From: an uncultured Alphaproteobacteria bacterium | GTDB taxonomy: Bacteria; Pseudomonadota; Alphaproteobacteria; Rhizobiales; Kaistiaceae | Direction of reading: 5' to 3' | Assembly (NCBI GenBank): GCA_963782395.1 | Contig: CAWAJQ010000003.1 | Span: 71,364 to 135,363 of the forward strand | DNA: 64,000 nucleotides | In this document: in pieces, positions 5,503-24,640 of the stretch | How positions within the stretch are numbered: position 1 is the stretch's first letter | How the letters are laid out: every line of letters begins with the position of its first letter | Program-made: the position numbers and the translations under genes | The notes under the pieces: model-generated | The model's database searches: none | Seen by the model: the letters and a program-made list of their open reading frames with translations, nothing else | Told to the model about the DNA's origin: nothing

Positions 5503-5697
5503 CTCTTCACGTCGAAGCTATCGACGGTCATTGCCCTTCTCTTGTTGTTTTTTCGATTGTGACGGCAAACCCTTCCGCATAGCCTTTGCTGGCTTGTGAG
5601 GGGCTTTGAAGGCGCCCTTCAGGGCTTTGTGGAAGCGCTCTTGCGCTTCGTTGTCGCCGTATTTTTCCGATTCGGACCGTTTCATCGGGGATCTCCT

Positions 5698-6495: not shown

Positions 6496-6712
6496 GATCG
6501 TATCCATAGGTCCAACGAACGTGCGCACAACCGATCTGTCAAATCACGCCTAAAACGGACGAGATTTCAATATGTTGTATCATGTGGTGCGAAAGACATA
6601 ATTAGGAATAAATTCCTGGCACAGTCTATGCGCGTTTGCGTCGGCGGGGATAGAGGTGGGTCCGCTTTTTGAGACAGCTTGGCGGCTTGGCTAAGGTGGA
6701 TTCTGGGTGTGA

Positions 6713-7549: not shown

Positions 7550-7566
7550 CTTCCTCCGATCCAGGC

Positions 7567-7848: not shown

Positions 7849-8018
7849 GGTGGATCGTCCTTCTCGTCATCGAATCCTCCTTAACCACCTGTCTCACAAA
7901 CCGGGACCAGCTCTGATAACTTTCGCTGCCTTTTCGGGGGCGGGGATTGGCGGCCGACTTATCCCCGCTTCCGCCGGCAGGGAGACACTTGCCTCAACGC
8001 AAAAGCGGAGGCACGTCG

Positions 8019-10827: not shown

Positions 10828-11108
10828 TCGTCCGCCTCCGGCTTGTCGCCGCCGTAATAGGTGTCGGGCCGGCTCAGCGGCACGCCAAGCCCCTTGGCGA
10901 TGCCGATGATGATGAAGCCGCTCACCAATCCGATGACGGCATAGGCGCCGACGATGCCGTCGATGCCGAAATGGCTGACATGCCCATGCACCGCGTCGAT
11001 AACGAGAGCGAGCGCCATCACGGCGAGCGCGGCAGCGGCGAGCGCACGCACCACCCCTGGCCGCACCAGCGGCCCGCTCTTCTTCCTGGGATCAGCCTTC
11101 CTTGCCAT
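10824..11108 (-). CDS. Small membrane protein within the Mrp-like operon
   Basis: 94 aa with two predicted TM segments. It abuts the upstream gene's stop and overlaps the next gene's start by 4 nt. Confidence 0.55.
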   Translation of the reverse strand: MARKADPRKKSGPLVRPGVVRALAAAALAVMALALVIDAVHGHVSHFGIDGIVGAYAVIGLVSGFIIIGIAKGLGVPLSRPDTYYGGDKPEADE

Positions 11109-12566: not shown

Positions 12567-14044
12567 GACGCGCCCCCGAGAAGCAGCGCCGCGGCCTTGC
12601 CGGCAATGCCGGCGGTCAGGCTGGTGTCGAGGCCGAAATAGATGGCGGCACCGGCGAGCAGCCAGATCGGCACCAGCATGGTGAGCGGCGCTTCGCTCGC
12701 CCCGGCCGCGGCCTCCGACGGCGCGCGGAACCAGGCCGCCTCGATCACCCGGCCGACATAGACGACAGTCAGAAGCGAGCTGGCGACGACGAGGAAGCTC
12801 AGCCACCACCAGCCCTGCTCGAAAGCGGCGACGACCAGATACCATTTGGAGACGAAGCCGACCGTGCCCGGCACGCCGATCAGGCTCAGGCCGGCGATGA
12901 CGAGCGCGGCGAGCGTCAGCGGCATCTTGCGGCCGATGCCGGCGAGATCGTCGATGGCGCAGCTCTTGGTGCGCAGTACCACGGCGCCGAGCGTCATGAA
13001 CAGCCCGCCCTTGATGAGCCCGTGATTGACGATGTGCACGATGCCGCCGGTGAGGCCCAGCTGAGTGGCGATGGCGATGCCGAGCGTGATGTAGCCGATC
13101 TGCGCAACGGAAGAATAGGCGAACATACGCTTCACGTCGGACTGGAAGACGGCCACCGTTCCGGCGCCGAAGATGGCTGCGATCGACAGCACCATGAGGA
13201 TCGGGGTGAGCGGCATTTCGGCGAAGACGAAATGGGCGCCGAAGACGGAGAACAGGTAGCGGATGAAGAGGTAGATCGCGACCTTGGTGGCGGTCGCGGC
13301 GAGAAAGACCGTCGCCGTCGACGGCGCGTAGGCATAGGCGTTGGGCAGCCAGACGTGGAGCGGGAAGAGCGCCAGCTTCAGGCTGATGCCAACGGTGATG
13401 AAGGCGAGCGCGGTGAGCACCACGCGGGAGGATTCGACATCGACGATGCGCTCGGCCATGAGGCCGAGGTTGAGCGTGCCGGTGGCGAGATAGAGGAAGC
13501 CGACGCCGATGATGTAGAAGGTGGCGCCGATGGTGCCGAGGATCAGGTACTGGTAGGCCGCGACCAGCGCCCGGCGGTCGCGCCCGAGCGCGATCAGCGT
13601 GTAGCTCGACAGCGACGAGATCTCGAGGAAGACGAAGGCGTTGAAGGCGTCGCCGGTGATGGTGATGCCGAGCAGGCCGGTCAGCGACAACAGATACATG
13701 GTGTAGAACCAGGCGACCCGGCCCGGTTCGATCTCCGAGGCGACGCTGCGCCAGGCGAACGGCGCGATCACCGCCGCGATGCCGGCCACCAGCACCAGGA
13801 TCAGCGCATTGAAGATGTCGATGCGGTATTCGATGCCGAGCGACGGGTCCCAGCCGCCCATGTGGTAGGAGATCACCCCGGTGGTCAGCACCTGATGCAG
13901 GAGCGCAATCGAGATGGCGAAGGCGGTCCACGACGCCACCGCGGCGATCACCCAGGCCGGCGTCGGCCTGCGGGAGAGCGCGGCAATCAGCGCCGCCAGC
14001 AGCGGCACCAAGACCTGCAACGCTGGCAGATTGTCGTGGATCAA
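12563..14044 (-). CDS. MrpD-like antiporter subunit (first copy)
   Basis: 493 aa. HVWLPNAYAYAPSTATVFLAATATKVAIY. Confidence 0.8.
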   Translation of the reverse strand: MIHDNLPALQVLVPLLAALIAALSRRPTPAWVIAAVASWTAFAISIALLHQVLTTGVISYHMGGWDPSLGIEYRIDIFNALILVLVAGIAAVIAPFAWRSVASEIEPGRVAWFYTMYLLSLTGLLGITITGDAFNAFVFLEISSLSSYTLIALGRDRRALVAAYQYLILGTIGATFYIIGVGFLYLATGTLNLGLMAERIVDVESSRVVLTALAFITVGISLKLALFPLHVWLPNAYAYAPSTATVFLAATATKVAIYLFIRYLFSVFGAHFVFAEMPLTPILMVLSIAAIFGAGTVAVFQSDVKRMFAYSSVAQIGYITLGIAIATQLGLTGGIVHIVNHGLIKGGLFMTLGAVVLRTKSCAIDDLAGIGRKMPLTLAALVIAGLSLIGVPGTVGFVSKWYLVVAAFEQGWWWLSFLVVASSLLTVVYVGRVIEAAWFRAPSEAAAGASEAPLTMLVPIWLLAGAAIYFGLDTSLTAGIAGKAAALLLGGAS

Positions 14045-14409
14045 CGCTTCTGATCCCGCTCGAAGATCTCGTCTTCTTCGATGGTGCCGTAGGCCTCGTT
14101 GATGCGCACGACCAGCGCCAGTCCCAGCGCCAGCGTGGCGACGCCGACGATGATGGCGGTGAGGATGAGCACGTGGGGAAGCGGATTCGAATAGACGGCG
14201 AAATGCTTGTCGATGATCGGAGCGGTGCCGCCGATGATCTTACCGGGCGAGATGTAGAGCAGGTACACCGAGGTCTGGAACAACGACAGGCCGACCAGCT
14301 TCTTCACCATGTTGCCGCGGGCAATCACGATGTAGAGGCCGGCCACCATGAGGAAGACGGTGATCCACTGGTTGTAGTGGGCGCCGATCTGGGAGAGGAG
14401 CGCGTTCAT
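14041..14409 (-). CDS. Na+/H+ antiporter subunit C (MrpC/MnhC, NuoK-like)
   Basis: Start MNALLSQIGAHYNQWITVFLMVAGLYIV at 14409, in an ATGA overlap with the upstream gene. Confidence 0.8.
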   Translation of the reverse strand: MNALLSQIGAHYNQWITVFLMVAGLYIVIARGNMVKKLVGLSLFQTSVYLLYISPGKIIGGTAPIIDKHFAVYSNPLPHVLILTAIIVGVATLALGLALVVRINEAYGTIEEDEIFERDQKR

Positions 14410-14825
14410 CCGCGCCCCCTGCCGGCGAAGGCATAGAAGATGGCAAGCATGGTCGAAGAGACCGTGATGAAGACCCCCACCTCGACCAGGAACACGCCCC
14501 ATTCCTGTCCGTGGGTGTGTTCGTGGGCGAGGTGGTTGTAGTCGAGGAAGTTGCCGCCGTTCAGCATCGAATAGACACCGACGCCGGCATAGATGAGGAC
14601 GCCGAGCGGGATCAGCGTCTCGACGATGGCGACCGGCACCAGCCGCATCGCCGCACCGAGCCCGTAGATCAGCGCATAGAGGATGATGCTGGCGGCGGCG
14701 ATGACGCCCGCCTGGAAGCCGCCGCCCGGACCGTAGTCGCCGTGAAACTGCACATAGGCCGCGAAAAGCAGCATGAACGGCAGGATGACCTTGGTGGTGA
14801 CGCGGAGGATGACGTCGAGGCGCAT
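14406..14825 (-). CDS. Na+/H+ antiporter subunit B (MrpB/MnhB)
   Basis: 139 aa. KVILPFMLLFAAYVQFHGDYGPGGGFQAGVIAA is the MnhB signature. Confidence 0.8.
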   Translation of the reverse strand: MRLDVILRVTTKVILPFMLLFAAYVQFHGDYGPGGGFQAGVIAAASIILYALIYGLGAAMRLVPVAIVETLIPLGVLIYAGVGVYSMLNGGNFLDYNHLAHEHTHGQEWGVFLVEVGVFITVSSTMLAIFYAFAGRGRG

Positions 14826-14836
14826 GACCCGTCGCC

Positions 14837-15382
14837 CTACTTCTTGTCGCCGCTTGCGAGGCGGCTGGCGGTTCGCTTGAGGAGCAGGAACACGGCGATG
14901 CCGGCGGTGAAGATCACCGTGGTCTCGCCGAGCGTGTCATAGCCGCGGTAGCTGGCGAGCACCGAGGTGACGACATTGGGGATGCCGGTCTCGCTCAGCG
15001 AACGGGCCAGGTAGTCCGGTCCCGCCACCTGGATGGTCGAGTCGGCAACGCCGAAGGACGGCAGCGCGGTCACGCCCCAGATCAGCGCGGCGGCGGTCAC
15101 CGCCGCCACGAACAGGGGCAACACCACCGAATGCAGCGGCCGCGCCTCCTCCGTCTTGGTGAGATAGAGAGTGCTCAGCATCAGCACGGTGGAGATGCCG
15201 GCGCCGACCGAAGCTTCGGTCATGGCGACGTCGACAGCGTCGAGCTCGATCAGGACGCTGGCCATCAGGAAGCTGTAGATGCCGGAGAGCACCGCGACGG
15301 CGAACAGGTTGCGCAGGCGCACGATGCCGATGCTTGTGACGGCTAGCAGGGTCAGCAGGACCGCGGGGATCAGGGTTTCGAT
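14837..15382 (-). CDS. DUF4040 / MnhB-N-terminal-like membrane subunit; start codon uncertain
   Basis: The conserved sequence begins IETLIPAVLLTLLAVTSIGIVRLRNLFAVAVLSGIYSFLMA. There is no in-frame ATG, GTG or TTG near the expected start. The only candidates are ATC (15382), CTG (15373) and ATC (15370). Confidence 0.6.
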   Translation of the reverse strand: METLIPAVLLTLLAVTSIGIVRLRNLFAVAVLSGIYSFLMASVLIELDAVDVAMTEASVGAGISTVLMLSTLYLTKTEEARPLHSVVLPLFVAAVTAAALIWGVTALPSFGVADSTIQVAGPDYLARSLSETGIPNVVTSVLASYRGYDTLGETTVIFTAGIAVFLLLKRTASRLASGDKK

Positions 15383-15729
15383 GGCGCGGCGTCCTTCGGC
15401 TTGGCCTCCGGCTCGGCATCGTCGGCCAGAAACGGCTTGACACCGGCGTGCAGGGCGGCGCGGGCGATGGCGTGGGTCGAGACCGGGCTCATCAACCCGA
15501 AGAAGAGAATGAGAAAGGCCAGCTTGACGGCAATCAGCGAGAAGCCGGCAATGACGATCAGGCCGATCAGGATCAGCCCGCCGCCGAGCGTATCGGAGAC
15601 CGAGGAGCCGTGCATCCGGGTGAACACGTCCGGCAGGCGGATGAGGCCGACGGCTCCGACGATCATGAAGAGGCTGCCGACGAGCACGAGGCCGCCGCCC
15701 AGCCATTGGCGGAGAAGCTCAAGCGTCAT
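15370..15729 (-). CDS. Monovalent cation/H+ antiporter subunit G (MrpG/MnhG)
   Basis: 119 aa. LIRLPDVFTRMHGSSVSDTLG is the MnhG motif. Confidence 0.8.
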   Translation of the reverse strand: MTLELLRQWLGGGLVLVGSLFMIVGAVGLIRLPDVFTRMHGSSVSDTLGGGLILIGLIVIAGFSLIAVKLAFLILFFGLMSPVSTHAIARAALHAGVKPFLADDAEPEAKPKDAAPSKP

Positions 15730-16001
15730 GACTCTTCCTCGCCGGCATCGCCGAGCGCGCCGAAGCGCAGGAACTTCAGCACGGCGAAGGTGCCGATGAT
15801 GTTGAGCATCGCATAGGTGAGGCCGATATCGAGGAACTCCGCCCGCTCGGTGAGAAAGCCGTAGATCGCCAGAATGAGAATGGCGGCGTTGCCGATCGAA
15901 TTGGCGGCGACCAGCCGGTCGAACACGGTCGGGCCCATGAGCGCGCGCACCACCATCAGGGCCGCCGCGACAAGCACCGCAATCATGGCTGCCGCCAGCA
16001 T
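15726..16001 (-). CDS. Cation:proton antiporter subunit F (MrpF/MnhF)
   Basis: 91 aa. GPTVFDRLVAANSIGNAAILILA. Confidence 0.75.
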   Translation of the reverse strand: MLAAAMIAVLVAAALMVVRALMGPTVFDRLVAANSIGNAAILILAIYGFLTERAEFLDIGLTYAMLNIIGTFAVLKFLRFGALGDAGEEES

Positions 16002-16483: not shown

Positions 16484-16837
16484 GACCCTTTGTCACCCCT
16501 CAGGCGCGGATTCGCCGGGCGCCCCATTGTCCCGATCCCACGCCGCCGATCAATCCCGCCAGGCGGCCATTCCTGCCTGTCGCCTGCCCCGGCTGCGAAT
16601 TGCCATTGAGATAGGCCGCCGAATGCCCCATTTTTAGGGTCACACGGGCGGCAAAATCGCCGACCGGCCCTTCAATTGCCCCAGCTTTTCGCGGAACGCA
16701 GCGCGGAAGATCCGCCGTGCGGACACGTCAAGATTGGCGGCCCCCCGCCCTTAGCAGGGGTGGGCGCGCACTGAACATGGACTACGATGACGCATCCCGG
16801 ACCTGACAGCGAGGCGACCGGCGCCGGTGTCGGCCGC

Positions 16838-18922
16838 ATGAAGAGCCTGAGGCCGCCGGTGGCGGAAAAGCGGCCGTCTACGTACACGCACCACGGTATT
16901 GTACGTACGGACGACTATGCCTGGCTACGCGCCGACAACTGGCGCGAGGTGATGCACGACCCGTCGGTGCTGGCGGCGGACATCCGCGCCTATCTGGAAG
17001 CCGAAAACGACTACGCCGCGGCCGCGACGGCCGATGTCGAGGACCTGCGGCAGACGCTCTTCGGCGAGATGCGCGGGCGGATCAAGGAGGACGACTCCTC
17101 CGTACCGATGCCGGACGGCGACTATGCTTATGCCACCCGTTTCGAGGAAGGCGGCGAGCATCCGCTGGTGGTGCGCACGCGGCGCGACGGCAGCGACGAG
17201 AAAGTGCTGCTCGACGCCCATGCCATGTCCGAGGGCCTCGCCTATTTCCGTCTCGGCCACTTCGCCCACAGCAACGACCACCGGCGGCTGGCTTATTCGG
17301 TGGACGACAAGGGCGCGGAGTATTTCACCATCCACGTCCGCGATACGGAGACAGGCGCGGACCTCGCCGACCGCATCGAGGGCACCACCGGCGATGCGGT
17401 GTGGGCGAGCGACGGCAATACCTTCTTCTATGTCTGGGTGGACGAGAACCACCGGCCGGCGCGGGTCTTCCGCCACGCCGTCGGCACCGAGCAGTCGGCC
17501 GATGTCGTCGTCTATGAGGACCGGCATCCGGGCTATTTCATCGGCATCGGCGAGACCCAGTCGCGCCGCTTCGTCACCATCGCGACCCACGACCACGAAA
17601 CCTCGGAACTGCGCGTGCTCGACGCCGGCCGGCCGGACGATACGCCGCGCCTCATCGCCCGGCGCAGAAAAGCCGAGGAGTATCACCTCGACCATGGAGA
17701 CGACCGCTTCTTCCTGCTCACCAATGCCGACGGGGCGGAGGACTTCAAGATCGTCACCGCGCCGCTCACCAAACCCGGCCGCCGCGCCTGGCGCGACCTG
17801 ATCCCGCATGTTCCGGGCCGGCTGATCCTCAATTTCACGGTCTACAAGGATTTTCTCGTGCGGCTGGAGCGCGAGGGCAGCCTGCCGCGCGTCGTCATCC
17901 GCCACCTCGCCACCGGCGAGGAGCACGCCATCGCCTTCGACGAGGAAGCCTATTCGCTCGGCGTGCTGGACGGCTTCGAATTCGACACGACGGTGCTGCG
18001 CTTCACCTATTCGTCGATGACCACGCCGACCCGCGTCTACGACTACGACATGGCGACGCGCGAGCGCGTGCTGCGCAAGGAGGACGAGATCCCCTCCGGC
18101 CATAACCCGGCCGACTATGTGACGCGGCGCGTCTTCGCGCCGACGCAAGACGGCGAGACGGTGCCGGTCTCCCTGCTCTACCGCAAGGGCACCAGGCTCG
18201 ACGGCAGCGCGCCCGCCCTGCTCTACGGCTACGGCTCCTACGGCATGACCATCCCGGCCGCGTTCAGCGTCAGCCGCCTGTCGCTGGTCGACCGCGGCTT
18301 CGTCTATGCCATCGCCCATATCCGCGGCGGCAAGGCCAGGGGCTACCGCTGGTACGCGGACGGGCGCCGCGAGAAGAAGGTCAACACCTTCAATGATTTC
18401 ATCGCGGCGGCTGGCTATCTGATTCAGGAGAAGTTCACCGCCGAAGAGCGCATCGTCGGCTGGGGCGGCTCGGCCGGCGGCCTGCTGATCGGCGCCGTCA
18501 CCAACATGGCGCCCGAGCTTTTCGGCGGCATGATCGCCGAGGTGCCTTTCGTCGATACGCTCAACACCATGCTCGACGACACGCTGCCGCTGACGCCACC
18601 GGAATGGCCGGAATGGGGCAACCCGATCGAGAGCGAAGAAGACTATCGCGTCATCGCCGCCTATTCGCCCTATGACAACGTCACGGCGCGCGCCTATCCG
18701 GCGATCCTGGCGCTGGGCGGCATCTCCGATCCGCGGGTGACCTATTGGGAGCCGGCCAAGTGGATCGCGAAGCTGAGGGCGCTCCGAACCAACGACAAGC
18801 TGACGATCCTCCGCACCAACATGGATGCCGGCCATGGCGGCGCCTCGGGCCGCTTCGACCGGCTGCACGAAACTGCCTTCGCCATGGCCTTCGCGCTCAA
18901 GGTGGTCGGGCTGATGGCATAA
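16838..18922 (+). CDS. ptrB: Oligopeptidase B (protease II), S9 family serine peptidase
   Basis: N-terminus PPVAEKRPSTYTHHGIVRTDDYAWLR. GGSAGGLL nucleophile elbow. C-terminal NMDAGHGGASGRFD. An alternative upstream ATG lies at 16787. Confidence 0.9.
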   Translation: MKSLRPPVAEKRPSTYTHHGIVRTDDYAWLRADNWREVMHDPSVLAADIRAYLEAENDYAAAATADVEDLRQTLFGEMRGRIKEDDSSVPMPDGDYAYATRFEEGGEHPLVVRTRRDGSDEKVLLDAHAMSEGLAYFRLGHFAHSNDHRRLAYSVDDKGAEYFTIHVRDTETGADLADRIEGTTGDAVWASDGNTFFYVWVDENHRPARVFRHAVGTEQSADVVVYEDRHPGYFIGIGETQSRRFVTIATHDHETSELRVLDAGRPDDTPRLIARRRKAEEYHLDHGDDRFFLLTNADGAEDFKIVTAPLTKPGRRAWRDLIPHVPGRLILNFTVYKDFLVRLEREGSLPRVVIRHLATGEEHAIAFDEEAYSLGVLDGFEFDTTVLRFTYSSMTTPTRVYDYDMATRERVLRKEDEIPSGHNPADYVTRRVFAPTQDGETVPVSLLYRKGTRLDGSAPALLYGYGSYGMTIPAAFSVSRLSLVDRGFVYAIAHIRGGKARGYRWYADGRREKKVNTFNDFIAAAGYLIQEKFTAEERIVGWGGSAGGLLIGAVTNMAPELFGGMIAEVPFVDTLNTMLDDTLPLTPPEWPEWGNPIESEEDYRVIAAYSPYDNVTARAYPAILALGGISDPRVTYWEPAKWIAKLRALRTNDKLTILRTNMDAGHGGASGRFDRLHETAFAMAFALKVVGLMA

Positions 18923-19063
18923 GGCGCGCCCATGAACAACGATCATTGACGACCGCTTTTGGAACACTTGCGGACGTACCTAACCTTCAACGACCTAATT
19001 TTAAGCATGCCGTTTGCAACCGAAATAGGTTAGCCTCTGGCGGACACTTGGAGGCGTCTGCGC

Positions 19064-20197
19064 ATGGAGCTGGACGTATCTTTGCTTCCGCTGATTGGCG
19101 AGATCTACGATGCTGCCATAAATCCTGATTTCTGGAGCGCCGTTCTGCCCAAGATCGGGGCTTTTGTTGGCGGATCGGCGGGCGGCATCTTCGCGCATGA
19201 TTCTTCGCGAAGGAGCATGAGCATAGCCTATTCGTTCAACACCGATCCCGATTACCGTCGGCTCTATGTTGGCAAATATCTGACGCTCGACCCTATAGCC
19301 GGCACCTATTTCGTGCTCGACGTCGGCGAAGTCTTCAGCACGTCGACGGTCATGGCGCATGCCGAGTTTCTGCAATCGCGCTTCTATAAGGAGCTAATCC
19401 GACCCCGCGGCTGGATCGACAACATCTGCGTCTATCTCGACAAAGTGCCGGAAGGTCACACAGGGTTCGCTTTGTTTCGCAATGAACGTGAAGGTCTCGC
19501 CGACGAGCCGGCGCGCGACCGGCTGCGGCTCCTGGTTCCGCACCTTCGCCGTGCCGTGCTGATCGGCAAGCTCATCGAGTTCAAAACGGCGCAAGCCGCC
19601 ACGCTTGCCGACGCCCTCGACGGGCTGAGCGCAGCCACGTTGTTCGTTGATTCGAGCGGTCGCATCACCCACGCCAACGCCGTGGCGCGTGCCATGATTG
19701 CCGACGGCGATATCTTGCGTGCGTCGCTCGGCCGGCTCGTCGCGAGCGATCCGGAAGTCGACCGCGCATTGCGGGACATCTTTCTGGCTGCCGCCACCGG
19801 CGACGCGGCGGTTGGCGCCAGGGGCGTTGCCGTGCCGCTGGTCGGGCGTGACGGCGAACGCCATGTCGCTCATGTCCTGCCGCTCTCGTCGGGCGCACGC
19901 CGCGGCGCCGGCGTGAGTTATGCGGCAGCGGCTGCCCTGTTCGTGCAGAAGGCCGCTTTGACCACGCATTCCCCGCCCGAGGTGATCGCCAAGACATACC
20001 GGCTGACGCCGATGGAGCTGCGCGTCCTGCTGGCCATCGTGGAGGTCGGCGGGGCGCCCCAGGTCGCCGAGACGCTGGGCATCGGCGAGGGCACGGTCAA
20101 AACCCATCTGAAGCGTCTTTATGAGAAGACCGGCGCACGCCGGCAGGCGGACCTGGTCAAGCTCTTTGCCGGCTACACCAGCCCGCTGCTGGGCTGA
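19064..20197 (+). CDS. LuxR-family transcriptional regulator (N-terminal sensor-like domain plus C-terminal HTH)
   Basis: 377 aa. C-terminal LTPMELRVLLAIVEVGGAPQVAETLGIGEGTVKTHLKRLYEKTGARRQADLV. Confidence 0.8.
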   Translation: MELDVSLLPLIGEIYDAAINPDFWSAVLPKIGAFVGGSAGGIFAHDSSRRSMSIAYSFNTDPDYRRLYVGKYLTLDPIAGTYFVLDVGEVFSTSTVMAHAEFLQSRFYKELIRPRGWIDNICVYLDKVPEGHTGFALFRNEREGLADEPARDRLRLLVPHLRRAVLIGKLIEFKTAQAATLADALDGLSAATLFVDSSGRITHANAVARAMIADGDILRASLGRLVASDPEVDRALRDIFLAAATGDAAVGARGVAVPLVGRDGERHVAHVLPLSSGARRGAGVSYAAAAALFVQKAALTTHSPPEVIAKTYRLTPMELRVLLAIVEVGGAPQVAETLGIGEGTVKTHLKRLYEKTGARRQADLVKLFAGYTSPLLG

Positions 20198-20245
20198 TTC
20201 CTGCGAACCGGCGAGCGCCGGAATGCATTCCCGTCATACGGAATT

Positions 20246-20296
20246 GGGGGGCTCCCGATCGGGAGACGCGGCGCGCGCAGTCGTGGCGGTAAGCTT
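20246..20296 (+). repeat. Conserved element A1: palindrome GGCTCCCGATCGGGAGAC, a spacer, then GCGGTAAGCTT
   Basis: Shares TCCCGATCGGGAGACGCGGC (20 nt) and GCGGTAAGCTT (11 nt), with similar spacing, with A2 at 21875-21923. Confidence 0.7.
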
Positions 20297-20383
20297 AAGG
20301 GACTTCGCCATTTCCCACCGAAATCTGAGCCGGAAACGGGACACGCTCCCCGGACAACAACCAACGGTGTCGTTTGATAGGTA

Positions 20384-20668
20384 ATGTCGCCGGGAGCCAA
20401 ACGCTGCATCGGTCGCGGCACTGCAGAGTTCAACAACGGCGTTCAGAATCCGCACATCGTCATCTGCCTCGCCAATGGCACGCGCGCGTGCTGCCAGAAA
20501 CAGTCAGACGGCGGCTACTCCTGCGGCTATTTCACCGACATCGGCCTCAACCCGGCCACCGGCCCCGGCGGCCAGGCTGGCGTCGGCGGCGCGCTTAGTC
20601 CGGGCCAGAGCTACACTCCGCCGGCTTCTTCGCTCTTTCATCTGAACCCTGGCCAAAAGGGTCAGTAG
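20384..20668 (+). CDS. Small Cys-rich protein (94 aa) with no signal peptide; the C-terminal tail is encoded by repeat B1
   Basis: High GC3 in the first ~58 codons (CIGRG...ICLANGTRACCQKQSDGGYSCGYF). The tail lies in the 150-bp repeat and has lower GC3. Weak RBS. Confidence 0.35.
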   Translation: MSPGAKRCIGRGTAEFNNGVQNPHIVICLANGTRACCQKQSDGGYSCGYFTDIGLNPATGPGGQAGVGGALSPGQSYTPPASSLFHLNPGQKGQ

Positions 20669-20710
20669 CCGCCGCTTGTTGATTCCCGTTCGTGGTTTTT
20701 GTCGCGGCTG
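20561..20710 (+). repeat. 150-bp direct repeat, copy B1
   Basis: Manual alignment to 21725-21874 gives 6 mismatches in 150 nt. Confidence 0.85.
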
Positions 20711-20780
20711 AAGCCGGCCGCGTGGCCGTGCTTCGCCGCGGCCCGACCAAGCCACGCGGCAGGTGCCAGGAAAATCCGTT

Positions 20781-21119
20781 TCATCGCGCATTCATCAGAA
20801 GGCGCCGATAGTACCAGGCGGTGCACGATGCCGACGGCTGGGTGCCCAATTGCAGGGAGGCGCCTGGCGGAAGCAGGGGACCGCCGAACGTCTTGCCGTA
20901 GTGTTTCCCGTCTCCGCTGCGAATGGCGTCGTAGCCCATCTGCGTGCCGGCGGCGATCGCTCCGGCGGTCGAATTGGTAATGACGACAATCTTTGCGTTG
21001 GCGATGTGACAGCTCAGGGCAACCTTGAGGGGCGAGGCGCTCGCCACTGGCGCAGCCGTCGCGTCGACCGTCCATGTCGTAACGGCGACGGCGGCCAGGA
21101 ACAACGCGCTTGCTTTCAT
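20781..21119 (-). CDS. Small secreted protein (112 aa, 2 Cys)
   Basis: Signal peptide MKASALFLAAVAVTTWTVDATAAP. No recognisable family. Confidence 0.55.
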   Translation of the reverse strand: MKASALFLAAVAVTTWTVDATAAPVASASPLKVALSCHIANAKIVVITNSTAGAIAAGTQMGYDAIRSGDGKHYGKTFGGPLLPPGASLQLGTQPSASCTAWYYRRLLMNAR

Positions 21120-21185
21120 TTCTGCACAATCCCGCTACACGAAGGGCCGCCACCGCAATTGACGCCGCTCATTCTCCGAATTGCG

Positions 21186-21497
21186 TCAATGGCCAGGCGA
21201 AACCTTCAGCCCGCTTGTGGGAACACGACTGATGCCACTGGAACTGGCCGCTTTCGCCAGGCACTGGTCCTCCAGCGTGTTGCAGACAGCGTAGCCATCA
21301 GCTTCGCAATACGACCCCCTTTCAGGGTGCGCCTTACAGGTGTCGTCTGTCGCATACTGGCAGTCGATCAACTGATTGGCGCAATACTGCTTGCGCTGGT
21401 CCGACCCGCGAGAGCCCGAGCCGTCGTTCGGTGCTGCGACGGCGATCTGCCCGACCACGATGAAGAGGCTCCATGCAAGTACCAGGCTTCGGATCAT
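21186..21497 (-). CDS. Small secreted Cys-rich protein (about 103 aa, 6 Cys)
   Basis: Start MIRSLVLAWSLFIVVGQIAVAAP (signal peptide) with an AAGGGAA RBS. The mature part is YCANQLIDCQYATDDTCKAHPERGSYCEADGYAVCNTLEDQC. Confidence 0.55.
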   Translation of the reverse strand: MIRSLVLAWSLFIVVGQIAVAAPNDGSGSRGSDQRKQYCANQLIDCQYATDDTCKAHPERGSYCEADGYAVCNTLEDQCLAKAASSSGISRVPTSGLKVSPGH

Positions 21498-21724
21498 GGG
21501 AGCGTTCCCTTGCAGTTGCCGGATCGCGCGCAAGACGCGAACCGCCTCCAGCCAAGATATACCGTGTCCATTCGTAGAAGCAGCCCGAAGCCTAGCGCGG
21601 CGCTGCGCCCAAGAAATAGCTGCTTTTCTTCGCGACCACTATCAGAAAGTCCGAGCCAGGATCTCGCGTGGAACTTCACGACCCGCAAATGTACGGCCGT
21701 TCAGCGAAGATCAAAATTGCCAGT

Positions 21725-21874
21725 GGCCCCGGCGGCCCGGCCGGCGTCGGCGGCGCGCTCAGTCCGGGCCAGAGCTACGCTCCGCCGGCTTCTTCGCTCT
21801 TTCATCTGAACCCTGGCCAAAAGGGTCAGTAGCCGCCGCTTAATGATTCCCGTTCGTGGTTTTTGTCGCGGCTG
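21725..21874 (+). repeat. 150-bp direct repeat, copy B2
   Basis: 96% identical to B1. In this copy the frame equivalent to the orf94 tail has no long ORF upstream. Confidence 0.85.
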
Positions 21875-21923
21875 GGGGTCTCCCGATCGGGAGACGCGGC
21901 CCACCTCGCCGCGCGGTAAGCTT
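21875..21923 (+). repeat. Conserved element A2: perfect 18-bp palindrome GTCTCCCGATCGGGAGAC, a spacer, then GCGGTAAGCTT
   Basis: Follows B2 directly and lies about 100 bp upstream of the 21989 gene. Confidence 0.7.
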
Positions 21924-21988
21924 GGCGGATGCCAACCGTGCAGCGCGAGGCTCGCGTCGGTTTGGCAACGGCCCCAGGAGGCCTCTCC

Positions 21989-22351
21989 ATGCAAGGGCTA
22001 AGGACGTCTGTCTTCGCCATTTTCATTCTTGCCGTTGCAGTCTCGGCGCTGCCAGCGCGAGGTGCCGACAACTCGGGCGGCGCGAGTCCACCTGAACAAT
22101 CGAAAGTTTGCCTTGCTCTTTATGACTCTTGCACGGCTGCGTGCACTGCTGCGGCGTTGCGTTCGATGGAAGGCGCTGTCAACGAGGATGACTGTGACCG
22201 AAAGTGCCAAAACGCGAACCACACATGCATGAATACCGGTGCTGCATTACCGGCAGGGTCAACGTCGGATAAAAAGCAGCTTGCGGCGCCTAATACACCG
22301 CCAAACAGGTTGCCCGGACAGGTGGCGAACCCTCCATCGAGCATAAGGTGA
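21989..22351 (+). CDS. Small secreted Cys-rich protein (about 120 aa)
   Basis: CAGGAGG RBS. Signal peptide MQGLRTSVFAIFILAVAVSALPARGA. Mature part CLALYDSCTAACTAAALRSMEGAVNEDDCDRKCQNANHTC. Confidence 0.6.
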   Translation: MQGLRTSVFAIFILAVAVSALPARGADNSGGASPPEQSKVCLALYDSCTAACTAAALRSMEGAVNEDDCDRKCQNANHTCMNTGAALPAGSTSDKKQLAAPNTPPNRLPGQVANPPSSIR

Positions 22352-22357
22352 GACATC

Positions 22358-22627
22358 ATGTTCCGCATGCACCTTCTCGTTGCGGCCATCGCCGCCATGG
22401 CAATTGTCACGGCCACGGGAGCCCAAGCAGGCTTCTGCAGGATCTTTCCCAAATGCTCTACTGAATATCTTTCCCATCATCACGGTTATTGCCCCCCGTT
22501 ATGTCCCCCCGCCTCGAAGTCTCCACAACGTGGTCACCCGGTTCCCGGGCACGTGACGAATCCTCCAACGAGCACCGGCGCCTCGCAAACATCGCAGCCG
22601 CAGTTGGGAACCAACAAAACCAAATAG
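22358..22627 (+). CDS. Small secreted Cys/Pro/His-rich protein (89 aa)
   Basis: AAGGTGAG RBS 6 nt after the previous stop. Signal peptide MFRMHLLVAAIAAMAIVTATGAQA. Mature part GFCRIFPKCSTEYLSHHHGYCPPLCPP. Confidence 0.55.
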   Translation: MFRMHLLVAAIAAMAIVTATGAQAGFCRIFPKCSTEYLSHHHGYCPPLCPPASKSPQRGHPVPGHVTNPPTSTGASQTSQPQLGTNKTK

Positions 22628-22636
22628 CGCCGAACA

Positions 22637-22685
22637 CCGGCCAAGTGGATCGCGAACGAGCGCGCAGTCTTTTCCATCTGAACAC
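22637..22685 (+). other. Short ptrB-derived fragment
   Basis: CCGGCCAAGTGGATCGCGAA (22637-22656) is identical to ptrB 18752-18771. It is followed by a TTCCATCTGAAC motif that resembles TTTCATCTGAAC in repeats B1 and B2. Confidence 0.6.
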
Positions 22686-22783
22686 CGAATTAACAACCGG
22701 CTCGGAATGCGTTCAGGATGGCTGCTTCAGTTTGACTACGGTCGATCGAATGGCGGTCGACATGAACAGGTGGAGGAGACTTC

Positions 22784-23323
22784 ATGCACAAGTTGATGGG
22801 CTGGGTGGTGGTACTGGTGGGGTTGGTCGGCATATCGAGCGGCGCCAGTGCAGCGACGCTGGCGCAACAGGGTTACGTCAACCTCGGCGGCGTCAATCTC
22901 ACTGCCTGGTGCCAGCACCAGTACGGCGCCGACTTCAAGGCGGTGGCTCATGGTAGTGGCGCCGGCGACTGGTCGTGCCAGCGCAACGACAACGACCGCC
23001 GGGAAATTTCCGTCACCAACGCGTGCAAGCTTCAGTACCGTGACAACAACGCCAAGGCGGAAGCGCTGGGCGGGGTGGGCTCGTGGCAGTGCTGGAAGCC
23101 GGGTCCGGTCCAGAAGGGCGTCAACCTCGACGCATGGTGCAAGCATCAGTACGGCGGCACCTTCAAGGCAGTCGTGCGCGGCAATACGGCCCTCAGCTGG
23201 GTCTGTGAAGACAGCCGCCCGGTATCGGTGAAGGATGCCTGCATCCTGCAGTACGGCAACTCGGTCACCGGGGCCAAGGCCCTGAACCCGAGAGATCCGG
23301 GCTCGTGGGTCTGCACGTTCTGA
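22784..23323 (+). CDS. Secreted protein (179 aa) made of two tandem ~70-aa four-Cys repeats
   Basis: GGTGGAGGAG RBS and a signal peptide ending SGASA. Repeat 1 is GVNLTAWCQHQYGADFKAV...DWSCQ...NACKLQY...SWQCW. Repeat 2 is GVNLDAWCKHQYGGTFKAV...SWVCE...DACILQY...SWVCTF. Confidence 0.7.
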   Translation: MHKLMGWVVVLVGLVGISSGASAATLAQQGYVNLGGVNLTAWCQHQYGADFKAVAHGSGAGDWSCQRNDNDRREISVTNACKLQYRDNNAKAEALGGVGSWQCWKPGPVQKGVNLDAWCKHQYGGTFKAVVRGNTALSWVCEDSRPVSVKDACILQYGNSVTGAKALNPRDPGSWVCTF

Positions 23324-23438
23324 AGCTGACGCGTCGGTGCCGTTCGCGGGTGACCGCGAATGGCCTGCCGCTCTTCGGCGAACGTCCCGGGACGGGCCAG
23401 GAGGCCGAGCAGCGGCATGCCGGACCGCCAGCAAAGTC

Positions 23439-23631
23439 GACTATCGCGTCAAGCCGCCTATTCGCCCTACGACAATGTGACGGCGCGCGCCTATCCGGCG
23501 ATCCTGGCGTGACGATCCTCCGCACCAACATGGATGCCGGCCATGGCGGCGCCTCGGGCCGCTTCGACCGGCTGCACGAGACCGCCTTCGCCATGGCCTT
23601 CGCGCTGAAGGTGGTGGGGCTGAGCCACTAA
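23439..23631 (+). pseudogene. Decayed duplicate of the ptrB 3' end
   Basis: Aligns to ptrB 18641-18712 and 18801-18922 at roughly 90-95% identity, with an 88-bp internal deletion (ptrB 18713-18800). It ends with its own TAA (…VVGLSH*). Confidence 0.9.
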
Positions 23632-23656
23632 GCTGTATACTCGCCGACGACGGTCG

Positions 23657-24640
23657 GTGACGCGGAGGCCCCCTTTGAAAGCGATCGATGCCCTCGAGAT
23701 CAGCATCCTGGTGGACAACCTCACCGACAGCCTGTCGTCCAACCCGTCCTTCGTGGAGACGGAGTGGGCCAGCCTGGGGCACCGGGGGGCGAAGCTGCTT
23801 TCCGGAAAGTGCCTGTGCTGCGCCGCGCATGGCCTCTCCTACCTGATCACGGCCCGCACCGGGTCCGGTGGCCGCGCGCTTCTCTTCGATACCGGGCCGG
23901 ACGAATGGGTGTTCGAGCGCAACGCGCTCAGGCTCGGCGTCGATCTCGGCACGGTCGAGGCCATGGTGCTGTCGCATGGCCACTGGGACCACAGCGGCGC
24001 CATGCCGCGCGCGCTGCAGATGATCACCCTGGCCAATGGCGGCCGCGCTGTTCCGACCTACATGCATCCCGACATGTTCGCGCTACGCGCCACCCGGTCC
24101 CGCAGCGGCAAGCTTCACCCGATGGAGCCGGTGCCGAGCATCGACGTGCTTGGCGCCAACGGCGGCGAGGTTGTCGTCACGCGCGACGAGCAATCGGTGG
24201 CCGACGACCTCTTCTACGTCAGCGGCGAGATTCCCCGCGTCAGCGCTTTCGAGATCGGATTTCGCGGCCAGGTCCGGCAGACACCGTCGGGCGACTGGGA
24301 GCCGGACGAGATCCTGCAGGACGAGCGCTTCGTGGCCGTGAACGTCGCCGGCAAGGGGCAGGTCGTCTTCACGGCCTGCTCGCACGCCGGCCTGATCAAC
24401 GTGCTCACCCAGGCGCGGTCGCGTTTTCCCGACATCCCGCTCTACGGCGTGTTCGGCGGCTTCCATCTCTCCGGTGCAACTAAATCGATCATCCCGCAAA
24501 CGGTCGACGCCCTGGCGCAATTCGGCCTCACGCTGATCGCGCCGGGACACTGCACCGGCTGGCGGGCGCTGAACGCGCTCGCCGAAGCATACGGCGACGC
24601 CGTGGTTCCCACCGCGGTCGGAAAGACGTTCAGACTTTAG
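23657..24640 (+). CDS. MBL-fold metallo-hydrolase
   Basis: 327 aa with the SHGHWDHSGA (HxHxDH) motif. The start codon (GTG at 23657) is uncertain. Confidence 0.75.
   Translation: MTRRPPLKAIDALEISILVDNLTDSLSSNPSFVETEWASLGHRGAKLLSGKCLCCAAHGLSYLITARTGSGGRALLFDTGPDEWVFERNALRLGVDLGTVEAMVLSHGHWDHSGAMPRALQMITLANGGRAVPTYMHPDMFALRATRSRSGKLHPMEPVPSIDVLGANGGEVVVTRDEQSVADDLFYVSGEIPRVSAFEIGFRGQVRQTPSGDWEPDEILQDERFVAVNVAGKGQVVFTACSHAGLINVLTQARSRFPDIPLYGVFGGFHLSGATKSIIPQTVDALAQFGLTLIAPGHCTGWRALNALAEAYGDAVVPTAVGKTFRL

Follow-up and report, generated by a model that had tools for sequence, protein, structure and literature searches.

The arrangement that we describe here most resembles the T6SS effector-immunity arrays of Vibrio cholerae and the Rhs loci, for which the mechanism that we favor has already been proposed (Kirchberger et al. 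2017, PMC5361080); C-terminal displacement at Rhs and CDI loci is credited there to Jackson et al. 2009 (as cited in PMC5361080). For those systems, the proposal is that homology-facilitated illegitimate recombination comes first and that the arrays are later reshuffled by ordinary homologous recombination (PMC5361080). As at our locus, a series of 3' pieces, all displaced and 5'-truncated, trails behind an upstream anchor that is conserved, the newest module adjoins the live gene, and no recombinase is associated. In T6SS and Rhs arrays, the displaced ends consist of polymorphic toxin domains, accompanied by immunity genes, and are retained through selection for immunity, whereas the anchor at our locus is a housekeeping serine peptidase with a conserved C-terminus (ptrB), and its displaced ends are non-functional fossils. 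Also unlike those arrays, the cargo is unrelated to the anchor: it includes a regulator, small secreted proteins, signalling enzymes, and transporters.

A gene's 3' end can also be the integration site of genomic islands, ICEs, and IMEs, which leave the gene restored, and tandem accretion and integrase-less CIMEs are known. The ptrB locus shares with such islands the direct repeat of a 3' end, the intact gene, the empty site in relatives, and the stacked units. But five arrays are without integrase or transfer genes, the repeat boundaries do not fall at one core, the repeats are diverged and 60-300 nt long where such islands have a short, identical core, and cargo units are also found elsewhere with none of these repeats beside them. 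Campbell-type integration, in which a single RecA-mediated crossover of circular DNA yields anchor-cargo-anchor, leaves repeats as long as the cloned homology and can be undone by precise loop-out. The product at ptrB is of this form, and so is the precise loss in one relative (L084) and possibly in another (L172). We identified no recombination intermediate, circular or otherwise, and no plasmid origin, vehicle, or donor genome for the ptrB cassettes. Finally, hot spots of horizontal gene transfer that are flanked by core genes are normally inferred from gene content only. The ptrB locus also has a variable segment between core genes, but unlike the usual hot spot, it seems to have kept a physical scar of every event, in the form of a truncated copy of the anchor.

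We analyzed a stretch of 64,000 nt (the window) together with loci from related genomes. In these uncultured soil bacteria, new genes appear to have been added repeatedly at the end of a housekeeping protease gene, with the old ends left behind as fossils. On balance, we lean toward the view that the region 3' of ptrB is an integrase-free hot spot of accretion, in which repeated homology-anchored insertion ("sequential displacement") brings in genes and recombination between the repeats removes them. If so, the locus is a clean natural example of both gene gain and gene loss.

The anchor gene, ptrB (16787-18922; features are on the + strand unless stated otherwise), is intact and encodes an oligopeptidase B of 711 aa (Pfam Peptidase_S9_N, 2.9e-99; Peptidase_S9, 3e-65). 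It is conserved, and in every ingroup locus, as well as in Kaistia, it lies 3' of the Mnh/Mrp antiporter operon. According to the junction listings, its stop codon is followed by about 56 nt that we call type A (18923-18978). Type A accompanies the end of the intact gene and also the younger fossils of relatives (r1 and r2 of L086 and rA of L170). The variable segment is bordered by core genes, with Mnh-ptrB on one side and sp103-SOD on the other, and its content varies among close relatives. All of the genomes are MAGs, and some gene calls are broken up (ptrB in L170).

As the original prediction stated, the 3' end of ptrB reappears downstream, where it lacks 88 bp and has a stop codon of its own; both a repeat search and an alignment confirm this. 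The segment of ptrB that has a duplicate runs from about -305 to the stop codon (18622-18925). Its copy, fossil r3, lies at 23420-23634 and is 5'-truncated at about -305. The two main blocks are 93-96% identical, which is far above chance expectation: 95% over 57 nt (18656-18712 vs. 23453-23509) and 96% over 114 nt (18801-18914 vs. 23510-23623). A weaker lead-in (18622-18653 vs. 23420-23451) is 78% identical. There is no counterpart of 18713-18800 in r3, and the spacing of the blocks is offset by exactly 88 bp. As this length is not divisible by 3, r3 is a frameshifted pseudogene fragment; its final 36 codons have a weak match to Pfam Peptidase_S9. Its own TAA (23629-23631) is 43 nt 5' of the TTG start of a gene for an MBL-fold hydrolase (23675-24640; Pfam Lactamase_B), whose 321-aa form is the form recorded in databases. 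The ortholog of r3 is full length in L006 (15006-15297), shortened in L086 (20146-20336), and interrupted in L001 by an unrelated IS5 element. We find it very hard to believe that these repeats are artefacts of assembly, that is, mis-joins or collapsed or expanded repeats in a metagenome-assembled contig. The contigs are indeed from MAGs, and the splitting of ptrB into three gene calls in L170 suggests indel errors, but at least five contigs, which are independent and stem from different samples, have orthologous fossils in matching positions, and the fossil of each contig has its own decay (the 88-bp deletion, frameshifts, or an IS insertion).

An empty site is also found, as expected for an insertion. 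In L172, ptrB has no duplicate and is separated from the MBL gene by 73 nt, and positions 23510-24640 of the window (r3, the post-stop sequence, and the MBL gene) align to L172 9797-10966 in one HSP. The post-stop sequence of L172 and of fossil r3 is of another kind (type B, GTATACTC...) and is unlike type A. Because r3 and the MBL gene are collinear with the ptrB-MBL junction of L172, r3 appears to be the original end of ptrB, and the MBL-fold gene appears to be its ancestral downstream neighbor. L172 itself could be ancestrally empty or could have undergone a secondary, precise deletion; the tree of the ingroup has a star-like shape, and its support values are 12-57%.

Across six relatives, whose upstream DNA is 84-89% identical, the number of truncated ptrB ends varies from zero to at least four, and there are 3-14 kb of differing cargo. 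L086 has three ptrB fossils, L170 has at least four, and the window and L001 have two each. The fossil that is common to all arrays is the one farthest from ptrB, and the lineage-specific fossil is the nearest. The cargo is wholly different among genomes (FabH-like, ABC transporter, GGDEF-EAL, YgaP-like, and small secreted proteins), also among those that have the repeats in common.

Could a purely local rearrangement account for this? Either the whole of ptrB or its 3' end might have been duplicated in tandem without any input of foreign DNA, and the extra copies might then have decayed; the genes in between might be native or unrelated insertions. ptrB can duplicate in tandem, as L018 (a Hyphomicrobiaceae MAG) has a full tandem paralogue, with 79% nucleotide identity, 1.1 kb away. 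Also, gene conversion and unequal crossing-over clearly operate at the locus, and the luxR gene of the window's islet shows good conservation, with paralogues elsewhere in related genomes. But in a tandem duplication, the DNA downstream would have been copied too, and what follows the live end (type A or type C and then cargo) bears no relation to what follows r3 (type B and then MBL). In L170, the intact gene adjoins lineage-specific FabH-like cargo and ends in a third terminus (type C), and its youngest displaced fossil, rA, keeps the clade-typical type A and is collinear into the luxR unit. Distinct termini for the live gene and the fossil are predicted if an end is imported with its cargo, but not if the duplication is local. 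With the cargo entirely different between genomes as well, we consider a local origin quite improbable. Nor did we see a native tandem duplication with no empty site, which was the outcome named beforehand as contrary to an insertion: L172 is empty and the cargo varies.

Homologous recombination acts on the ptrB repeats. In four quartets, 7, 7, 8, and 12 sites group the copies by genome, vs. 1, 0, 1, and 1 sites that group them by locus (p = 0.035 to 0.0017, values that are somewhat optimistic, as sites within one codon are not independent). For example, r1 of L086 is 99.4% identical to its own ptrB vs. 88.8% to the orthologous r1 of L170. Each fossil is nearer to the ptrB of its own genome than to the orthologous fossil of another, which points to gene conversion. 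The 93-96% identity of ptrB and r3 gives no date for the insertion, as gene conversion homogenises the copies. L084 looks like the loss of a cassette through the repeats: it is sister to L086 (97% bootstrap) yet lacks luxR-sp89, and its seamless ptrB-YgaP junction is collinear with the r1-YgaP junction of L086 (90.6% over 924 nt).

Alternatively, elements of the prophage, ICE, or IME type might integrate site-specifically where ptrB ends and bring a substitute 3' end with them. Their integrases would have been lost, or CIME-like cassettes would be mobilised in trans, and repeated use of att would give tandem accretion. A 3'-end direct repeat with a replacement terminus, an empty site, and tandem accretion are classic outcomes of such integration, and for ICEs, both accretion and CIMEs are well-established ideas. 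Several cargo genes have atypical GC3. Also, the cargo starts at a nearly constant distance past the stop codon (about +42 to +56 nt), which could mark a defined insertion site rather than the mere end of shared homology. On the other hand, the genes that such elements need are missing from the arrays. The original prediction that no integrase, recombinase, or transposase lies between the repeats held up in Pfam scans of the islet ORFs on both strands, and precomputed Pfam results show no recombinase among the called genes of L083/L086, L084, L170, and L172. The five arrays (3 to >14 kb) have no recombinase except for the unrelated IS5 copy in the L001 fossil, and across these five independent arrays, which total >35 kb, we found no integrase, excisionase, relaxase, or conjugation gene, or pseudogene thereof. 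These searches covered 20-kb loci and the 64-kb window, so an integrase could lie elsewhere in the genomes. The islet has no match in plasmid and phage collections, ptrB did not come up as a known site of integration when the literature was searched, and 160 other ptrB loci have no 3' duplicates, bar one full tandem paralogue. Furthermore, the fossils begin at differing places within ptrB (-305, -285, -172, -86, and -60, a spread of up to 245 nt), which argues against a single recombinase core, although later deletions could have trimmed these boundaries, in which case they would be compatible with a fixed att core. The luxR unit is present at three unrelated loci, with no ptrB-derived, att-like sequence alongside in the two that we checked, and identical footprints are found at two anchors within the islet that are not ptrB. 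Overall, we think that site-specific integration is unlikely. A single 4.5-kb element with the footprint of site-specific integration, as first suggested, does not fit a layered array with varying fossil starts, no recombinase, and a luxR unit that also occurs elsewhere. Of the three origins that were originally offered (an old integrase-less remnant, an element mobilised in trans, or a different mechanism that targets the ptrB terminus), the evidence favors the last, in the form of homology-anchored recombination.

Under sequential displacement, the incoming DNA would carry new genes behind a 3' end of ptrB and about 50 nt of the sequence downstream of that end. It would be anchored within ptrB through homologous pairing of the RecA type. 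The event would then be resolved either by an illegitimate join at the far end (homology-facilitated illegitimate recombination) or, if the molecule is circular, by one crossover of the Campbell type. ptrB would remain intact with the incoming end, and the resident end, truncated at the join, would be displaced downstream along with all that came after it. Repetition would give ptrB, the newest cargo, a fossil, older cargo, another fossil, and so on up to the MBL gene. Fossil r3 would record the first event, at the ancestral ptrB-MBL junction, and a 20-nt vestige within the islet would record a later one. The 3' flank of luxR with its palindrome and the 3' end of sp94 may be further anchors for the same process. 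Gene conversion would keep the fossils similar to the live ptrB, and the fossils, as direct repeats, would permit cassette loss and possibly loop-out and re-insertion. What we see in the genomes is the anatomy, the empty site, the several fossils with their differing boundaries, the lack of a recombinase, and the concerted evolution, and it is from these end products only that we infer the pathway of recombination. Gene gain and loss at ptrB are probably driven by ordinary homologous recombination.

The later event is represented in the window by a 20-nt exact match to ptrB (22637-22656, matching 18752-18771; blastn-short E = 1.9e-6), which we take to be what is left of a second, younger fossil, r1. 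It begins 10 nt after the stop codon of sp89 and is positionally orthologous to the full r1 fossils of L086 (12037-12262) and L170 (12942-13116). A second footprint, found by the repeat search, involves the final 114 nt of sp94 and 42 nt downstream (D1, 20555-20710). These are duplicated past sp112 and sp115 as D1' (21719-21874), a 5'-truncated copy of the sp94 3' end. D1 and D1' are 95% identical over 156 nt, and D1' is just 81% identical to the sp94 region of L006. The footprint is of the same kind as that at ptrB, one level down. A third involves an 18-bp palindrome (not assigned to a strand), whose first copy (GGCTCCCGATCGGGAGAC, 20250-20267) is 53 nt past the luxR stop codon and 117 nt before sp94 and whose second copy (GTCTCCCGATCGGGAGAC, 21878-21895) is just 5' of sp140. 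The anchor region that is duplicated around the second copy extends from 21873 to about 21928. These are 2 matches in the window vs. 0.05 expected. Seven luxR loci have exactly one palindrome per locus, with none elsewhere in 2.7 Mb, and the palindrome columns are invariant in the alignment of the luxR unit. L001 has a single palindrome and lacks the 1.6 kb that separates the window's two copies, and L170 has two copies, each of which precedes a cassette. The r1 vestige, the 156-nt internal repeat, and the duplicated palindrome were all missed in the first reading of the sequence.

The cargo of the islet is as originally described, a LuxR-family regulator and six small, mostly secreted proteins, according to the ORFs and Pfam. 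The luxR unit (18979-20334) comprises a conserved promoter region, the luxR coding sequence (19064-20197), and about 137 nt of conserved 3' flank. The protein has a C-terminal GerE HTH (PF00196, 29.9 bits vs. a cut-off of 23.5) and a weak PAS-like middle. At the nucleotide level, the unit is 90% identical to those of L087/L088 and 86% identical to that of L089, and their genomic contexts are unrelated. None of the six small ORFs has a Pfam match, and five have signal-peptide-like starts (N-termini were judged by eye rather than with a predictor). sp94 (20384-20668) encodes a 94-aa protein that contains Cys and whose tail is rich in Gly and Pro; it has 83% aa identity in L006 and is also a called protein in a public collection. 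Next, on the - strand, come sp112 (20781-21119), which is also a called protein in a public collection, and the Cys-rich sp115 (21186-21533). Both are small, with signal-peptide-like N-termini, and neither has a homologue in any fetched locus other than the window. sp140 (21929-22351, with a likely start Met at 21989) is secreted and Cys-rich, with a Pro-rich "GQVANPP" tail. It has 61% aa identity in L001, and Cys-rich relatives with "NPPT" tails come after luxR in L086, L089, and L170. sp89 (22358-22627) is small, secreted, and Cys/Pro-rich, with 91% aa identity in L001 and 78% in L086; in L170, the identity at the nucleotide level is 92.6%. Of all the cargo genes, sp179 (22784-23323) is the most conserved: it is 96% identical at the aa level in L006 and 89% in L001, and it encodes a secreted protein with two domains of about 70 aa, each with four invariant Cys. 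Its family has only 20 clusters, it has no Pfam domain, and its AF2 model (pLDDT 83.6) has no fold match in the PDB. The LuxR-type regulator probably controls the small secreted Cys-rich proteins through the conserved 18-bp palindrome, a regulatory link that we infer.

The islet was also said to be visibly lower in GC, and this is partly so. Its GC content is 62.3%, vs. about 65.9% in the flanks, which is the 10th percentile of 4.5-kb windows in the sequence. GC3 is 0.56-0.77 in luxR, sp94, sp112, sp115, sp140, and sp89, as compared to about 0.87 in core genes, but it is 0.84 in sp179.

The last ~300 nt of ptrB, the gene for oligopeptidase B, occur twice in the window. The intact gene (16787-18922 on the + strand, 711 amino acids; Pfam matches to Peptidase_S9_N at 2.9e-99 and to Peptidase_S9 at 3e-65) is followed 4.7 kb downstream by a copy of its 3' end. 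The alignment has two strong blocks, 18801-18914 against 23510-23623 (96% identity) and 18656-18712 against 23453-23509 (95%), and a weaker lead-in, 18622-18653 against 23420-23451 (78%). The downstream copy lacks 18713-18800, which accounts for the 88-bp difference between the two repeat spacings, and it has its own TAA at 23629-23631, 43 nt ahead of the TTG start of a gene for an MBL-fold hydrolase (MBL, 23675-24640; 321 amino acids, as in the databases). Between the two copies, in what we call the islet, lie a LuxR/GerE regulator (19064-20197) and six small ORFs without Pfam matches: sp94, sp112, sp115, sp140, sp89, and sp179, numbered by their lengths in amino acids, with sp112 and sp115 on the - strand. 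The repeat alignment and the scan of ORFs against Pfam thus bear out the original prediction of a duplicated ptrB 3' end with a LuxR gene and small-protein genes in between. It also held that no integrase, recombinase, or transposase lies between the repeats, and domain scans agree: none of the islet ORFs, on either strand, contains a Phage_integrase, Recombinase, Resolvase, or rve domain.

The islet is only mildly atypical in composition. Its GC content is 62.3%, versus ~65.9% in the flanks, which places it at the 10th percentile of 4.5-kb windows. GC at third codon positions is 0.56-0.77 for most of the cargo genes, 0.84 for sp179, and ~0.87 for core genes. There are no tRNA genes in the 64-kb window. 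Across 18.5-24 kb, Rfam gave one sub-threshold match, which we dismissed (sX7, 21.9 bits versus a gathering score of 55), and scans for promoters and terminators gave no signal beyond shuffled expectation.

A search with ptrB against one genome per species found only two close relatives, L001 and L006 (85-87% amino acid identity), which are soil MAGs labelled "uncultured Alphaproteobacteria"; next was Kaistia at ~70%. The loci L083/L086 (on the same contig), L084/L085, L170, and L172 were found via homologues of MBL and of the LuxR protein. All of these ingroup loci have the same Mnh-ptrB synteny upstream, and they are 84-89.5% identical to the window at the nucleotide level. The MAGs of this clade are from the ENA analyses ERZ25039477, ERZ25039495, ERZ25039534, and ERZ25039539 and from GCA_936418335.1. 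What follows ptrB varies. In L172, ptrB and MBL are separated by 73 nt and no genes. L084 has a YgaP-like membrane protein alone, with neither luxR nor a ptrB fragment. L006 has luxR, sp94, sp179, and a full-length but frameshifted ptrB fragment, and L001 has luxR, sp140, sp89, sp179, and a ptrB fragment that is interrupted by an IS5-family element. L086 has luxR, a 110-aa Cys-rich protein, sp89, a fragment (r1), a YgaP-like gene, two small genes, another fragment (r2), two PAS-GGDEF-EAL genes, and a third fragment (r3) beside MBL. In L170, ptrB is followed by two FabH-like genes, a fragment (rA), luxR, a PEP-CTERM-like protein, the 110-aa protein, sp89, r1, an ABC transporter, two more fragment pieces, and a GGDEF-EAL gene; this locus stops before MBL. 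In more distant relatives, the gene directly after ptrB is KefB-like (L092 and L093) or a homologue of sp103, which with SOD bounds the variable segment (Kaistia, L090, L091, and L153).

Among 160 other ptrB loci, we found no duplicated 3' end, except that a Hyphomicrobiaceae MAG (L018) has two complete tandem ptrB genes (9737-12076 and 13219-15303; 79% nucleotide identity) with a 1.1-kb spacer that contains two small ORFs. We also searched metagenomes with the ptrB C-terminus; among the matches listed, relatives were at most 80% identical, and these served as a negative control for 3'-end duplicates. MBL homologues that are 81-82% identical to the window's occur in other genomes from the same soils (L081 and L082, ~10001-10966; L173, 9790-10755), in a different conserved context: a gene for a UbiH-like FAD monooxygenase lies before MBL and Trm112 and Lon-substrate-binding genes lie after it. 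So either the MBL gene itself moved or paralogues exist. In L172, ~5 kb is inserted between MBL and the KefB-like gene.

If the islet was inserted, then some relatives might have an empty site, as the original prediction had proposed, and L172 has one, with just 73 nt between ptrB and MBL. A single HSP, which covers the ptrB end, the intergenic DNA, and MBL, pairs window 23510-24640 with L172 9797-10966. After its stop codon, the fossil copy (we use "fossils" for the 5'-truncated ptrB 3' ends) continues with the sequence we call type B (...GTATACTC...), which matches L172. In every array-bearing genome, the intact ptrB has a different, conserved tail of ~50 nt that is not type B: type A (GCGCGTGCCCATGAACAACG...) in most of them and a third, type C, in L170. 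The tails of the live gene and the fossil differ, so the live gene gained a new terminus along with the cargo, while the old terminus remained by MBL. In other words, the copy beside MBL is the original ptrB end. A simple local tandem duplication is ruled out by the same observation, since the live gene has the new terminus and the old one lies beside MBL. The junction of ptrB and YgaP in L084 is the empty-site counterpart for the layer that runs from luxR to sp89. No related donor for the type A terminus was found among the outgroup post-stop sequences that we compared, and sliding-window identity along ptrB gave no clear imported tract except for the last ~35 nt in L170.

The locus is a layered array in which the intact anchor gene comes first and 5'-truncated copies of its 3' end follow in tandem, with cargo between them. 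The window has two fossils, L086 has three, and L170 has at least four. The oldest is r3 (23420-23634 in the window), which lies beside MBL in the window, L001, L006, and L086. A younger fossil, r1 of L086 (12037-12262), corresponds to that genome's own ptrB from -172 to +53 relative to the stop codon. The DNA that follows r1, with the YgaP-like gene, aligns collinearly with the junction between ptrB and YgaP in L084 (90.6% identity over 924 nt), so ptrB next to YgaP is an arrangement that the luxR-sp89 layer either entered or later dropped out of. Directly after sp89, the window and L001 retain an exact 20-nt vestige of r1 (window 22637-22656, which equals 18752-18771). The youngest layer that we see is in L170, where FabH-like genes adjoin ptrB; rA and this cargo are found beside ptrB only there. 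In L170, the final 86 nt of ptrB were displaced together with the type A tail and the luxR unit, as one block: window 18837-20302 matches L170 9772-11241. Throughout the ingroup arrays, the newest module adjoins the live ptrB and older modules are distal.

With site-specific integration, attL and attR would share a core at one fixed position of the target; the 5' limits of the fossils vary (-305 for r3, -285, -172 for r1, -86 for rA, and -60, all relative to the stop codon), although secondary trimming is possible. The cargo always starts ~42-56 nt past a stop codon. The same footprint is found with two other anchors within the window's islet. The 3' end of sp94 plus 42 nt (20555-20710) recurs at 21719-21874, past sp112 and sp115, and the 3' flank of luxR, with an 18-bp palindrome, recurs ahead of sp140 (20245-~20300 and 21873-~21928). 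L001 has one copy of the palindrome and lacks the 1.6 kb that separates the window's two copies; L170 has two copies, with a cassette after each.

The fossils are orthologous and lie in orthologous flanks, yet each is closest to its own genome's ptrB. Over the 113 columns that are present in all copies, the window's r3 is 94.7% identical to its own ptrB and 86.7% identical to orthologous fossils. For r3 of L006 and L086, the values are 90.3% and 89.4% to their own ptrB and 81-87% to orthologous fossils. r1 of L086 is 100% identical to its own ptrB over these columns; over the full 175-nt overlap, it is 99.4% identical, versus 88.8% to the orthologous r1 of L170. In quartets, 7, 7, 8, and 12 sites group the sequences by genome and 1, 0, 1, and 1 group them by locus (p = 0.035, 0.008, 0.02, and 0.0017, which are somewhat optimistic as sites within one codon are not independent). 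These patterns are those of concerted evolution through gene conversion, which shows that homologous recombination acts on the repeats. The 93-96% identity of the repeats therefore carries no information about the age of the event; the r3 fossil predates the divergence of genomes that differ by ~14% in flanking DNA. This is a warning that the identity between such repeats should not be used to date an insertion. We also considered whether the fossils might be silent cassettes that diversify the live gene, as for pilS, and rejected this, as the fossil sequence is essentially the same as that of the live gene.

Layers may also be lost. When ptrB minus its last 330 nt is analysed by neighbour joining, L084 is the sister of L086 (97% bootstrap). 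L170, the window, and L001 also have the luxR-sp89-r1 layer of L086, so recombination between r1 and the end of ptrB most likely removed this layer from L084. L172 may be ancestrally empty or a precise revertant; support for its position in the tree is at most 57%.

The best-supported explanation for the array is sequential displacement by homology-anchored recombination. Incoming DNA that carries a ptrB end and foreign genes would pair with the resident ptrB. Two routes could then fix it: an illegitimate join at the far side (homology-facilitated illegitimate recombination, with a one-sided homologous anchor and dependence on RecA), or one crossover if the molecule is circular. The resident ptrB end would stay behind, cut short where the two DNAs join, and would afterwards be subject to gene conversion and to deletion through the repeats. 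The sequences themselves show the anatomy, the layer order, the distinct termini, the absence of recombinases, and recombination between copies; the pathway we infer from these end products.

Most bacterial gene gain is credited to elements with their own recombinases, and integrase-free hot spots are usually inferred from gene content alone. At ptrB, the scar of each gain is physically present as a truncated copy of the anchor, so the order of events, the part played by homologous recombination, repeat-mediated loss, and homogenisation by gene conversion can be read from sequence across related soil genomes. The locus is a clean natural record, in multiple genomes, of gain without an integrase, of loss, and of gene conversion; the processes behind it are known ones, and it is the mechanism that we infer. 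For Vibrio cholerae, this model was put forward to explain T6SS effector-immunity arrays, and it was also proposed for orphan Rhs C-termini that occur in strings (PMC5361080). Like the Rhs, CDI, and T6SS effector-immunity arrays, the ptrB locus has an intact anchor, tandem truncated 3' copies, and the newest module adjoining the live gene. However, the displaced ends in those arrays are polymorphic toxin domains with immunity genes, while here they are conserved Peptidase_S9 C-termini, and the cargo is a regulator, small secreted proteins, GGDEF-EAL proteins, an ABC transporter, and FabH-like genes. The ptrB locus fits best as a variant of the pattern of sequential displacement, or homology-facilitated recombination. 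It extends sequential displacement, so far described for polymorphic-toxin loci, to a housekeeping gene with unrelated cargo.

The original prediction had read the direct repeat as the footprint of site-specific integration. It is the footprint of insertion, and an empty site exists, but no single element accounts for it, and a site-specific integrase probably did not produce it. An empty target site is what an integrase-type element at a gene's 3' end would also have, but such elements come with recombinase, transfer, or phage genes, and this array does not. Precomputed Pfam results for every called gene of five arrays (L083/L086, L084, L170, and L172) include no integrase, resolvase, transposase, or transfer gene, and there are no phage structural, replication, or transfer domains in the window's islet or in the L083/L086 and L170 arrays. 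With blastn, the islet had no match among 72,556 plasmids or 50,697 phages. No integrase-bearing element was seen at ptrB across the seven ingroup loci, and a literature search did not find ptrB as an integration site. The main rival, and a possible one, is that an integrase acted in trans, as for CIMEs (cis-mobilizable elements), whose att sites would belong to an integrase-bearing element that uses the same target: we compared loci on a ~20-kb scale, the fossil boundaries could have been trimmed, and the offset of the cargo from the stop codon is nearly constant.

This near-constant offset also raised two other kinds of targeting, which we rejected. Tn7-like elements have tnsABC(D)/tniQ, terminal transposase-binding repeats, and a 5-bp target duplication; the arrays have no tns or other transposition genes, and the duplications are 60-300 nt. 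For Xer/dif-dependent (IMEX) targeting, we saw no convincing dif-like site by eye at the junctions. An integron, which would have an intI integrase, attI, and an attC following each cassette, does not fit: there is no integrase, and the 18-bp palindrome occurs once or twice per locus, ahead of cassettes and not after them. A more elaborate reading is that the last ~300 nt of ptrB and its ~50-nt tail are a dedicated landing pad for a recombination system that acts in trans, which would give an integron-like array anchored in a housekeeping gene; a further tier of capture would lie at the luxR palindrome, so that a regulator and a changing secreted repertoire are assembled on purpose and not by accident. 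We consider this quite improbable, and we favor sequential displacement.

The only transposase in the arrays is in the IS5 copy that interrupts the fossil in L001, and it is unrelated to the repeats. This element (14980-15750 on the - strand, in the MBL-side fossil) encodes DUF4096 and DDE_Tnp_1 domains in two ORFs with a frameshift. In the window, an IS1595-family transposase (3853-4848, +) and an IS3-family OrfB with an rve domain (6713-7549, -) lie 11-15 kb upstream, where GC content is lowest (~59% around 4.7-9.2 kb), and are likewise unrelated to the repeats. The stretches of L001 and L006 that we fetched lack a counterpart for most of 3784-7915. This region is a second variable spot of the window, unrelated to the ptrB repeats.

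The luxR unit (promoter, coding sequence, and conserved 3' flank; 18979-20334) is not confined to ptrB. It is 90% identical at the nucleotide level to a copy downstream of an ATP12-family gene (L087, 9916-11266; L088, 290-1640) and 86% identical to a copy in another context (L089, 9969-11239), and a further homologue (80% amino acid identity) lies in a fourth context (L171, 10001-11134). Thus, in related soil genomes, the unit is found in at least three other, unrelated chromosomal contexts. There is no ptrB sequence beside luxR in L087/L088 or L089, and no duplicated 3' end of the genes upstream of luxR at L087 or L089, so the footprint does not always accompany the unit. One of the non-syntenic copies is 93% identical to the window's protein, and the syntenic copies are 84-85% (L001, L006, and L086) or 91% (L170) identical to it. 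Two luxR homologues, P0188 and P0201, lie on the same 504,582-bp contig. The protein (377 amino acids) has a C-terminal GerE helix-turn-helix (PF00196, residues 314-366; 29.9 bits versus a cut-off of 23.5), so it belongs to the LuxR/FixJ-type (GerE) family. It is not classified as a quorum-sensing LuxR (an acyl-homoserine-lactone receptor), as Pfam reports no N-terminal autoinducer-binding domain, just a sub-threshold match to PAS_4. It had no match among PDB sequences.

At every luxR locus, in any context, the perfect 18-bp palindrome GTCTCCCGATCGGGAGAC lies ~55 nt past the luxR stop codon. The window has it at 20250-20267 and 21878-21895 (2 observed versus 0.05 expected), and in relatives it is at 13454 (L001), 13450 (L006), 11189 (L086), 11182 (L087), 1556 (L088), and 11189 (L089). 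We found none away from luxR loci in 2.7 Mb of fetched loci. L086 has a variant in which pairing is kept via a G-U wobble. By distances read by hand from listings, the palindrome is ~100-125 nt upstream of the next gene at 5 of 7 luxR loci (the window's first copy, L086, L087, L088, and L089); it is ~30-90 nt from sp140 in L001 and for the window's second copy, and ~370 nt from sp94 in L006. The genes that follow encode small proteins with signal-peptide-like N-termini, many of them Cys-rich with a Pro-rich "G.V.NPPT" tail. In L087-L089, other small secreted proteins follow luxR (with His-rich repeats, Cys-rich, or "NPPT"-tailed), and in L171, two small unannotated genes do. The palindrome is a putative operator of the regulator or, alternatively, a conserved RNA hairpin, and luxR would control secreted proteins that vary from locus to locus. 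Together, these features make up a recurrent module in uncultured soil Alphaproteobacteria: a luxR-type regulator, an 18-bp palindrome, and variable small, secreted, Cys-rich proteins.

The most conserved of the cargo genes is sp179 (22784-23323), whose product is 96% identical to its homologue in L006 and is more conserved than ptrB itself. It is secreted and has two repeated domains of ~70 amino acids, with four invariant cysteines in each. No Pfam domain covers the family, which has just 20 sequence clusters. AlphaFold gives a confident model (pLDDT 83.6), and a search of the model's fold against PDB gave no match (best E = 0.67). Finally, the first cassette after luxR in L170 (11247-11924) encodes a protein that ends in a PEP-CTERM-like sorting motif (...PLPAALPLFATGLGVSLLARRRKRK), and this gene is split by a frameshift in the assembly.
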